A stretch of DNA of 64,000 bases, from positions 4,721 to 68,720 of the IMG/VR virus record IMGVR_UViG_3300045938_000125. One strand, given 5' to 3'. Below the pieces are notes generated by a model. It was given only the letters and a program-made list of their open reading frames with translations, did not search any database and was not told the DNA's origin. Source of the stretch: a virus (taxonomy: Duplodnaviria; Caudoviricetes). The translations under genes and the position numbers were made by a program. Below are positions 19,930-34,126 of this stretch, piece by piece. Within the stretch, counting starts at the first letter, position 1. Each line of letters starts with the position of its first letter.

Positions 19930-20145
19930 ATGAAACTGACCAAGTTTAAGCTGGTAAACCACGAAGGCCTTACGGGCCTCAACTACAAGGGCCGCACGAT
20001 TCCCTTCGATAAACTCGACGATGCCAAAGCCGAGGAGCTTTTCGGCAAAACCCACGTGCTCGAGCGCATCGGGGAGGCCCCCGTCACCACGCCGGTAGTC
20101 CTGGCGGTGGCGGAGGCCACTGGCGATAAAAAAAAAGCCGAGTAA
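19930..20145 (+). CDS. Small structural/hypothetical protein
   Basis: Late operon ORF before a terminator. Confidence 0.65.
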   Translation: MKLTKFKLVNHEGLTGLNYKGRTIPFDKLDDAKAEELFGKTHVLERIGEAPVTTPVVLAVAEATGDKKKAE

Positions 20146-20176
20146 AAGCTAAGGGCTAACCGCCGGCAGCAACCCT

Positions 20177-20210
20177 AAAAGCCCCGCCTCTAACCAGGCG
20201 GGGCTTTTTT
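20177..20210 (+). terminator. Intrinsic terminator (possibly bidirectional)
   Basis: AAAAGCCCCGCCT-CTAACC-AGGCGGGGCTTTTTT. Confidence 0.9.
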
Positions 20211-20215
20211 GTGGC

Positions 20216-20223
20216 TACCTTTG
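20216..20223 (+). promoter_or_regulatory. Bacteroidota -7 promoter box
   Basis: TACCTTTG; no matching -33 TTTG seen; predicted start ~20228. Confidence 0.5.
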
Positions 20224-20227
20224 CCCC

Positions 20228-20351
20228 GCGAATTACCTGTTACCCTTCTTGCCAAAACGCCCCCTGGCCGTGCCCTTTGGAATCGGCCGGGGGAGCGTGC
20301 GGGTGTAAGTCCCGTAGTTTCTGGGGCGTTTTGGCGTACCAGGTAATTCGC
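20228..20351 (+). ncRNA. Candidate structured RNA (leader or sRNA), family not recognised
   Basis: 12-bp stem 20228-39/20340-51, 13-bp stem 20251-63/20323-35, two inner hairpins incl. T-loop-like GGG-TGTAAGT-CCC; G-U pairs favour + strand. Confidence 0.6.
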
Positions 20352-20388
20352 AGCGATTCCTCCGGCTTTCCCTTGCCGCACGCTGCTC

Positions 20389-20673
20389 ATGGCCCTCGAC
20401 CACTTACGACTTTCGCCGCTACCTGACGTAGCGGCTTTTTTGGTGCAGCGCGCCCAAAGCAACGACGAGCTGCAAGCGGCGCTCGATGACGGGCTCGACG
20501 ACTACACCCAGGGCGCGGAAGTGGTGCTCACGGCCCTACGTGCCCTGCTCGATGAGTGGCTGGACGAAGGCCGCCAGCAGTCCTACGAGGTAAATCGGGA
20601 TGCAGAACCCTTTAAGTGGCTGGCATTAAGCGACCACTTGGAGATAGTGCAGCACTTCCGCGACCTGCTCTAA
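20389..20673 (+). CDS. Small acidic hypothetical protein
   Basis: 94 aa, about 19 D/E vs 7 K/R by hand count. Confidence 0.65.
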   Translation: MALDHLRLSPLPDVAAFLVQRAQSNDELQAALDDGLDDYTQGAEVVLTALRALLDEWLDEGRQQSYEVNRDAEPFKWLALSDHLEIVQHFRDLL

Positions 20674-20676
20674 ATC

Positions 20677-20712
20677 CGTCCTACTAGCCGGTTGCCCATT
20701 CCGATAGCTTTG
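20677..20712 (+). promoter_or_regulatory. Prophage A late-type promoter copy 5
   Basis: CGTCCTAC-N20-TAGCTTTG; hairpin TTGATTTCA/TGAAATCAA 20710-20734; ATG 20747. Confidence 0.65.
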
Positions 20713-20746
20713 ATTTCAATAATCCTGAAATCAACGCTTTCCGAGA

Positions 20747-21517
20747 ATGGAACATCAACTAGAAGAGGTATTTACCTGGCTCGAAGCCGGCGAGGCGGCC
20801 GACTACCAGGCCGGCGTACTGCTGCTGCAAAAGCACAGTCGGAACCGGGGCCTGGTGGGCCAGCTACTCAAAAAGGAATCGGTAGCTAACCGAGAAAAGC
20901 TTGTTTACGAGCTTGTTAAAACAGGTTGCGGCGGCCGCCTCGAAGATGTGAGCGAGGTTCTTAACCACTTCACCCAGGCCGTGCAGGGCGCGGTACCGCA
21001 GCCGGCTGCCCAGGTAGTGATGGCCCCTGACCCCCAGCCCGAGCAGCCCGACCCTGCGCACGTGCCCGACGAGCTGCGGCCGCAGGTGGACGACCTCACG
21101 CAGCTCATGAGCAAGGTGCACACCCAGCGCGTGCAGCTGAGCAACAGCCTCTACGACCTGAGCGAAGCCGAGGCTCCCGCCGTAGTGGCCCAAATCCTGG
21201 CCTTGCAGGCGCAGTACAATGCCCTGGCTCAGAAGCGCAGCAATGTGCTGGCCGGCGAGCCCACGGCCCCCGAGCAGCCCGCCGCCCCGGCTGAGCAACC
21301 CGCTCCGGACGCTGCTGCACCTGGCACCACCGAAGCCGCGGCGCCTGGCATCGACCGGGCCGAGCTGATGAAGAAGCGCAATGGCCTGCGCTCTAATCTT
21401 TCGAAAGCTCGCAAGAAGGCCGAGGAGTCGAAAACGGAAGAGAAGCGGAGCGAATACGCGCAGAAGGCCGGCAAGCTGGAGGTAGAACTGCAACAGATTG
21501 AATTGCAGCTGAAATAA
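20747..21517 (+). CDS. Hypothetical coiled-coil phage protein
   Basis: WL....DYQAGVLLL N-terminus, PEQP repeats, coiled-coil C-terminus. Confidence 0.7.
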   Translation: MEHQLEEVFTWLEAGEAADYQAGVLLLQKHSRNRGLVGQLLKKESVANREKLVYELVKTGCGGRLEDVSEVLNHFTQAVQGAVPQPAAQVVMAPDPQPEQPDPAHVPDELRPQVDDLTQLMSKVHTQRVQLSNSLYDLSEAEAPAVVAQILALQAQYNALAQKRSNVLAGEPTAPEQPAAPAEQPAPDAAAPGTTEAAAPGIDRAELMKKRNGLRSNLSKARKKAEESKTEEKRSEYAQKAGKLEVELQQIELQLK

Positions 21518-23637: not shown

Positions 23638-23671
23638 AAAAGCCCCCGATGACTGCCATCGGGGGCTTTTT
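23638..23671 (+). terminator. Intrinsic terminator
   Basis: AAAAGCCCCCGATG-ACTGC-CATCGGGGGCTTTTT. Confidence 0.9.
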
Positions 23672-26735: not shown

Positions 26736-26770
26736 CGTCCTACTAGGGCCCTATGCGGGATTACATCTTG
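26736..26770 (+). promoter_or_regulatory. Prophage A late-type promoter copy 6
   Basis: CGTCCTAC-N19-ACATCTTG; hairpin GCGGGATTACA/TGTAATCCCGC 26755-26786; ATG 26792. Confidence 0.6.
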
Positions 26771-26791
26771 AGTGGTGTAATCCCGCTTTTT

Positions 26792-34081: not shown

Positions 34082-34126
34082 ATGTATCCAGAATTTGGAT
34101 ACATAAGAACGGCCGACGTACCTTTG
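34082..34126 (+). promoter_or_regulatory. Consensus Bacteroidota promoter with overlapping palindromic operator
   Basis: TTTG(34094-97)-N21-TACCTTTG(34119-26); ATGTATCCA-GAATT-TGGATACAT at 34082-34104. Confidence 0.75.

Follow-up and report, generated by a model that had tools for sequence, protein, structure and literature searches.

An uncatalogued RNA family is present in Hymenobacter prophages, where it is predicted to occupy the start of a phage mRNA. The copy analyzed here lies in a 64,000-nucleotide stretch (the window) of a 68.7-kb IMG/VR viral contig, at positions 20228-20351 of the plus strand, 5' of an open reading frame (ORF) for a small acidic protein. These 124 nt fold into a 12-bp helix (P1), an internal loop, a 13-bp helix (P1b) and a three-way junction with two further hairpins, P2 and P3; this fold is referred to as state A. 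The leader RNA is predicted to be bistable, since a second covarying helix, formed between the junction and a 3' tail, excludes P2 and the outer part of P3. Because two exclusive shapes are positioned just 5' of a small acidic ORF, the RNA most likely controls that gene. That it does so as a cis-acting conformational switch on translation, in the 5' leader of the phage mRNA rather than as a gene of its own, is an explanation to which we give slightly better than even chances, judging from sequence.

Genomic setting and predicted promoter

The element sits between two gene blocks. The upstream block holds the head genes (S49 protease, scaffold, major capsid protein, a 170-aa gene and a 71-aa gene) and the downstream block is a series of accessory genes. 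An intrinsic terminator at 20177-20210 (+), composed of a GC-rich hairpin followed by a T-run, ends the head-gene unit (p170-p71). It is covered by sub-threshold terminator-type Rfam matches, and most relatives have an equivalent terminator at the same position. A Bacteroidota-type -7 promoter box, TACCTTTG, follows at 20216-20223 (+). The original prediction had read a terminator and a promoter box at these two sites, and both are present.

The motif CTAYCTTYGNCCC ends 4 nt 5' of the first P1 base in 27/27 copies examined, drawn from both subfamilies described below, and it likewise ends 4 nt before P1 in a distant copy, L091. The motif matches what we take to be the Bacteroidota -7 box consensus, TAnnTTTG, and from this resemblance we infer that it is a promoter. 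In the window the box would put +1 at ~20228, such that the first base of the transcript is most likely the first base of P1. This placement agrees with the earlier expectation that the RNA begins at the predicted +1 and serves as a leader to the small acidic ORF. A single other exact TACCTTTG box occurs within the window, at 34119-34126, in a leader region.

A covarying three-way junction

The 5' strand of P1 (20228-20239, +) pairs with 20340-20351 and is followed by an asymmetric internal loop with a pyrimidine-rich 5' side (20240-20250) and a 3' side at 20336-20339. This loop is found in every member, and its sequence varies in the divergent ones. The 5' strand of P1b (20251-20263, +) pairs with 20323-20335. 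Within the junction, P2 (20264-20290, +) is formed by 20264-70/20284-90 and closes a loop at 20271-83 that carries a conserved GGAA, while P3 (20291-20322, +) consists of an outer helix (20291-96/20317-22) with three conserved G-U pairs, an inner helix (20298-303/20311-16) and a 7-nt loop (20304-10) that reads TGTAAGT in the window. All of the stems named in the original prediction, namely P1, P1b, P2, inner P3 and a start-proximal stem (20350-55/20381-86) considered below, were recovered where it had placed them.

The predicted folding energy of 20228-20351 on the plus strand is -72.0 kcal/mol (z = -7.72), and 0/200 dinucleotide shuffles were as stable; the minus strand folds more weakly (-60.1 kcal/mol). 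A covariance model scores the plus strand at 150 bits and the minus strand at 26 bits. This difference in score assigns the RNA to the plus strand, as do G-U pairs that are conserved within outer P3 and as the opening pair of the tail helix, and the strand call made earlier from G-U pairs is thereby borne out. That the element acts at the level of DNA, whether as a cruciform, as an inverted repeat bound by a protein or as a mobile insertion, is so improbable as to be nearly negligible: in the window the inverted repeats of P1 and P1b are perfect, and only some of the related phages have the element, but the conserved G-U pairs function on one strand only, the contig holds no second copy, the one apparent empty site is a deletion derivative, and the spacing to the promoter box and ATG is fixed.

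How well is the junction supported by comparison among homologues? In an alignment of 36 sequences, fitted to a covariance model and hence to a procedure that favours structure, 94.4% of cells are paired and 34/44 pairs have changed on both sides (11/12 in P1, where 99% of cells are paired, 13/13 in P1b, 2/7 in P2 and 8/12 in P3). Of 500 shuffles 0 were as good, a statistic inflated by the relatedness of the sequences, and slid controls gave 14-17 pairs. Independently of that alignment, homologues folded singly give the same architecture and plain inspection agrees; for example, the P1 arm GCGAATTACC/GGTAATTCGC in one copy is replaced by GCGAACAGTA/TACTGTTCGC in another with pairing kept. In P2, 98% of cells are paired, most changes are from G-C to G-U, and two-sided covariation is scant. 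Further tertiary pairs, such as one between the P3 loop and the internal loop, were sought by an all-against-all column scan, which returned only signals confounded with subfamily, and a GUAA/UUAC loop contact inspected by hand could be formed by some copies but not by others; both were rejected.

The fold matches no catalogued family. Rfam 15 gave 0 matches over the whole window at the gathering score and 0 matches in 13 homologous loci. In the region 20100-20750 at E <= 10, the hits were sub-threshold only, mostly of terminator type around 20128-20290, together with unrelated weak matches to mir-7948 (20258-20299), suhB (20384-20449) and a picornavirus IRES (20686-20750). The Infernal comparison proposed with the original prediction therefore returned nothing relevant at either threshold, whereas the covariation that it had called for among homologous loci was found; the claim of a real and uncatalogued structured RNA stands on the z-score, the covariation in 36 homologues and the lack of an Rfam match. 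A search for known RNA genes gave no tRNA and no tmRNA, and a literature search found no paper.

A second helix that excludes P2 and outer P3

RNAalifold, applied to a plain MAFFT alignment of the whole leader, returned a different helix unprompted and did not return the junction. Its 5' partner is a purine-rich core strand at 20279-20298 (+), which takes in the last bases of the P2 loop as well as the 3' side of P2 and the 5' side of outer P3. Its 3' partner is a pyrimidine-rich tail at 20353-20371 (+) that ends 18 nt before the ATG. The pairs join 20353-55 with 20296-98, 20357-67 with 20285-95 and 20368-71 with 20279-82, so the helix shares a strand with P2 and outer P3 and is incompatible with both.

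A contiguous core/tail helix of 10-11 bp is found in 26/26 copies examined, with one mismatch in total. The duplex in the window is calculated at -26.5 to -27.5 kcal/mol, and cognate core/tail combinations are more stable than non-cognate ones (-25.5 versus -22.6 kcal/mol; permutation p < 0.0002). When 32 copies were aligned with MAFFT without regard to structure (alignment A10), 96.3% of cells were paired and 7/11 pairs had two-sided changes; 0/500 shuffles were as good, with the same inflation by relatedness, and slid controls gave 0-2. Variation in core and tail is largely from G-C to G-U between a purine and a pyrimidine strand, which is weak evidence when taken alone. Indels are compensated as well: core and tail are each shorter by one base in L031 and each longer by one base in L073, L076 and L089.

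The strand shared by P2 and the tail helix carries a C-to-U change in several copies. In L066, L076 and L078 this change is compensated by an A in the tail, where P2 keeps a G-U pair; in L080 it is the 5' strand of P2 that supplies the compensating A, and a U-G pair is kept in the tail helix. Given this reciprocal compensation, selection seems to act on P2 and on the tail helix alike, though they are mutually exclusive.

The start-codon region and the energetics of the two states

A further hairpin, H4 (20350-20386, +), is predicted between P1 and the start codon. It pairs GCAGCG (20350-55) with CGCTGC (20381-86), overlaps the last 2 bp of P1, encloses the tail and ends 2 nt before the ATG. 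Its 3' strand motif GCTGC lies 0-9 nt 5' of the ATG in nearly all copies; H4 is unproven by covariation because its variation is wobble-only. The ATG lies 27-38 nt 3' of P1 in 35/36 copies. The exception, L066, is an RNA with no ORF behind it and with intact core/tail complementarity; it counts against the leader model and would suit a free-standing RNA. This copy (L066:1501-1720) is the second in a genome that also holds L055, and an intrinsic terminator lies ~95 nt past its P1.

In the window, state A together with H4 is calculated at -77.5 to -82.8 kcal/mol. A pseudoknotted state B that keeps P1, P1b and inner P3 (-46.6 kcal/mol) and adds the core/tail duplex (-26.5 kcal/mol) sums to ~-73 kcal/mol before any pseudoknot penalty. 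On these values the two states are roughly comparable, with nearest-neighbour energies still in favour of state A by 5-10 kcal/mol. State B with P1 and P1b intact is a putative conformation on steric grounds, given the 25-bp stem that the duplex must accommodate. A nested version of state B without a pseudoknot was rejected as an equilibrium alternative, at -56 kcal/mol, and RNAcofold is uninformative for state B since it cannot model a pseudoknot.

Distribution and subfamilies

Queries with the neighbouring 170-aa protein and the capsid protein recovered ~15 viral and 16 metagenome loci, with a conserved gene order of p170 - p71 - gap - p94 - p256. Among the related viral loci, the element is carried by the window, L022, L030 and L031, and in degenerate form by L026. 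Where the RNA is absent, the p71-p94 gap is 50-125 nt and holds a terminator and a short A-rich leader. A pattern derived from the conserved core led to six genome contigs, five of them from Hymenobacter and one binned as Janthinobacterium with the same phage-like locus. The latter (L058), from a metagenome-assembled genome labelled Janthinobacterium lividum, is a near-identical copy of the Hymenobacter-phage locus, and the contig is probably mis-binned in that genome.

A covariance model built from 11 copies (R1) located the RNA in about 17 of the 151 sampled Hymenobacter genomes. A second model (R2) run on a family-level sample gave further copies, including genomes with two copies, and on an order-level sample it added to the known carriers one weak distant copy (L091) in another Cytophagales genome; outside these carriers the RNA was not found in the genomes searched. 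The distinct sequences number 36 in total, from IMG/VR relatives, metagenomes and Hymenobacter genomes. Searches of isolated phages with DNA and protein gave no relatives, and a repeat search gave no second copy of the element in the contig.

The copies fall into two subfamilies, one like the window and a second that differs in its P3 loop and has fewer bases in its P2 loop. The P3 loop reads TGYAAGT in one subfamily and AGCATGA in the other, and P2 loops range over 4-13 nt. The second subfamily is located 3' of an endolysin/spanin-like pair. The distant copy L091 comes from an AT-richer genome; its promoter box, P1 termini and P3 loop are retained, and its core and tail remain complementary with a re-coded sequence, GGAGAGG/CCTCTCC. 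In this copy (L091:1501-1620, -), which lies outside the Hymenobacter set, the sequence just past the ATG is complementary to the P1b and P1 3' strands, a hint that a further competing helix may exist; the ORF that follows the RNA has only 6-18 codons.

Several candidates were set aside. L054, considered as an empty site, was rejected: the P1 and P1b 5' strands are retained and fused to the tail, so this locus arose by a deletion, with an AGCG microhomology at the junction. Pattern matches L036 and L037 fall inside coding sequence by chance, and L087 is a false positive formed by a plain hairpin.

Genes downstream of the RNA

The first gene behind the leader in the window, p94 (20389-20673, +), encodes a 94-aa acidic protein predicted to be all-alpha. 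With 19 D+E and 7 K+R its net charge is -12, as had been estimated. An AlphaFold model is confidently all-alpha (pLDDT 85). A Foldseek search against the PDB gave no significant match (E >= 0.8), the ESM Atlas yielded only weak helical-bundle look-alikes, and p94 has no Pfam or PHROG match and no named homologue. The earlier suggestion that the protein mimics DNA gains no support from these comparisons, and among the features observed none indicates that the RNA serves as an antitoxin.

The element and p94 had been proposed to form a self-contained moron. The distribution of p94 does not fit that proposal: a homologue is present in 14/15 related viral loci (L018-L031; absent from the most distant, L032), with or without the RNA, such that among these relatives presence varies for the RNA only. 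For this reason p94 is regarded as a conserved gene of the phage group and not as a moron. The unit has its own promoter box but no terminator of its own, as none was found between the p94 stop at 20673 and the next gene at 20747. A 9-bp hairpin at 20710-20734, between p94 and the 256-aa gene, has no T-run, so no clear terminator separates the two genes.

Within the p94 coding sequence there is a terminator-like hairpin with a T6 run (20415-20441, +), 64 nt past the leader tail. L045 and L069 have the same intragenic feature at the same codons, formed by different stems over partly different residues, and other copies are without it. The hairpin could act as an attenuator within the gene or could have arisen by chance. 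Hairpin/T-run motifs on the plus strand downstream of the leader are located at 20415-20435 (in p94), 21375-21392 (weak, in the next gene) and 26755-26786, and a symmetric hairpin at ~23638-23670, with T-runs on both sides, is listed on the minus strand.

The window-like subfamily precedes the p94 family, and the second subfamily precedes another acidic family with an N-terminal PIGFGR. No relationship between the two families is detectable, and homology between them was rejected with hhalign (probability 1.2%). The PIGFGR-type proteins are 66-136 aa long (loci L073-L078, L080-L086 and L088-L090, ~1640-1960 in each), with PIGFGR itself in 11/16, and have no Pfam or PHROG match. Their genes always come immediately 3' of a second-subfamily RNA, and in many cases an amidoligase gene (PF12224) lies next in line. 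All of the ORFs downstream of the RNA are acidic, with net charges of -2 to -14. Since the RNA also precedes a second, unrelated family of small acidic ORFs, the idea of a dedicated RNA-protein pair was dropped; two unrelated downstream families fit generic expression control and not a protein partner. In L066, another of the second-subfamily loci, the next gene has a Tad2-like (Thoeris anti-defence 2) domain (PF11195). A relative of the N-terminal domain of the 256-aa protein is also encoded behind the small ORF in L078.

Discussion

We propose that the first 124 nt of the transcript fold into state A, a bipartite stem of P1 and P1b capped by the P2/P3 junction, in which the tail would be free and its flanks could close H4 up to 2 nt before the ATG. 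In the pseudoknot-like state B, the core (20279-20298) would instead pair with the tail (20353-20371), P2 and outer P3 would be lost, and H4 would be blocked. The manner of blocking is predicted to differ between subfamilies, such that the alternative helix would take part of the H4 5' strand in the window-like subfamily and would lock the H4 loop in a duplex in the other. In Bacteroidota, start sites are chosen by an unstructured start region and not by a Shine-Dalgarno sequence, and the switch would therefore be expected to set translation of the small ORF and probably also of the accessory genes behind it. The direction that follows from H4 would make state A the closed form and state B the open one. 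As state A folds first during transcription, state B would need a trigger or a sharply bent internal loop. As the two subfamilies do not share their loop and junction bases, we favour a phage or host macromolecule or RNA processing as the trigger over a small ligand.

The original prediction had likened the leader to a riboswitch. Part of this comparison holds, since two mutually exclusive covarying conformations fit the idea and a 3' tail pairs into a folded domain in competition with start-site structure (H4), which is the logic of pseudoknot riboswitches; a binding pocket common to the subfamilies is less probable, as their loop and junction residues differ. In riboswitches of the SAM-II, SAM-V and preQ1-II type, a 3' tail near the start likewise pairs into a 5' domain in cis and competes with a local helix. 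The tail described here, however, is a pyrimidine tract 18-36 nt before the ATG and not a Shine-Dalgarno sequence, and the folded domain, which has no Rfam match and probably no conserved pocket common to the subfamilies, consists of a ~25-bp stem that carries a three-way junction. A ligand-sensing riboswitch, in which a small molecule, possibly linked to infection or defence, stabilizes one state and toggles the accessory cassette, would make sense of the exclusive states, of the tail that pairs into the junction and of the neighbouring genes of other copies, among them an amidoligase and one with a Tad2-like anti-defence domain. We nevertheless consider it unlikely: the subfamilies differ in their loop and junction residues, which speaks against a common pocket, the RNA has a narrow distribution confined to prophages, and there is no link to metabolic genes.

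An alternative hypothesis is that the P1-closed domain is excised as a stable regulatory RNA that pairs, in cis and in trans, with its own tail and with those of transcripts from incoming phages and exerts an immunity-like repression on the genes downstream, as do C4 of P1/P7 and CI of P4. Those systems share with the present one a leader-encoded phage RNA whose target lies further along its own transcript, close to where a small ORF begins, and in both cases RNA and target co-vary between related phages. Here too the RNA and its complement are co-transcribed in the same direction, and core and tail diversify jointly between close relatives such as L073 and L076. The long P1/P1b duplex resembles an RNase III substrate, several genomes have two copies, and L066 is an ORF-less copy with its own terminator. 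In C4/CI-type RNAs, however, the complementary bases are exposed in loops, and nucleases such as RNase P release the RNA, which acts in trans. In the predicted fold of the present family those bases lie inside helices: the strand is buried in P2 and P3, with only the GGAA at 20279-82 in a loop. There is no match to the Rfam C4 model, even at E <= 10, and no 3' end signal follows P1 in 35/36 copies. An excised RNA of this type is also given a small chance.

Could the element serve only as a 5' stabilizer or an RNase III site that sets mRNA half-life, with the tail complementarity incidental? P1 (12 bp) and P1b (13 bp), stacked about an asymmetric loop, reach the duplex length of ~20 bp or more, often with an internal loop, that is typical of RNase III processing sites, P1 begins at the predicted +1, and the sequences of P1 and P1b vary freely with pairing kept. 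The T7 R sites and the lambda N leader similarly have two stacked duplexes of ~12 bp with an asymmetric internal loop at an mRNA 5' end. Cleavage here would be by analogy with those sites, from which the present RNA differs in its conserved three-way junction cap and its covarying alternative partner. A role limited to stability or processing leaves the strong sequence conservation of the junction, the covarying tail helix, the fixed ATG spacing and the GCTGC motif without explanation, and we hold it to be rather improbable.

It is very improbable that the element acts as a cis antitermination RNA that, like HK022 put, allows the polymerase to read through downstream terminators, for which the hairpin within the ORF and the terminators that insulate later cassettes would be candidates. 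Like putL and putR it is a promoter-proximal, cis-acting structured RNA of a temperate phage, and three copies (the window, L045 and L069) have the terminator-like hairpin and T6 run, built from differing stems, at the downstream position noted above. Such an intragenic terminator is present in only 3/36 copies, however, and the put RNAs are two simple hairpins of ~70 nt, an architecture unlike the one found here, with neither an alternative pairing nor a link to a start codon. The conserved link in this family is to the start codon and not to a terminator.

The preferred reading remains a switch on translation in the leader, and it is a compact one: a system of ~145 nt has two covariation-backed conformations, a defined putative promoter and a defined start codon, which makes it directly testable by reporters and structure probing. 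To our knowledge, few structured cis-regulatory RNAs are known in Bacteroidota phages, and how translation is regulated in a phylum that largely dispenses with Shine-Dalgarno pairing is an open question. We give a low probability to the RNA being a phage-borne sensor, whether a riboswitch or a protein-triggered element, that opens an accessory or anti-defence cassette upon an infection or defence signal, for which a signalling nucleotide, a defence factor or a host factor would be candidates. If that were true, the switch would act by a mechanism so far undescribed in this phylum, where initiation is not based on the Shine-Dalgarno sequence. Since the RNA heads cassettes for small acidic proteins and in other copies adjoins genes of the Tad2-like and amidoligase types, its role may be to set when temperate phages express accessory or counter-defence functions.
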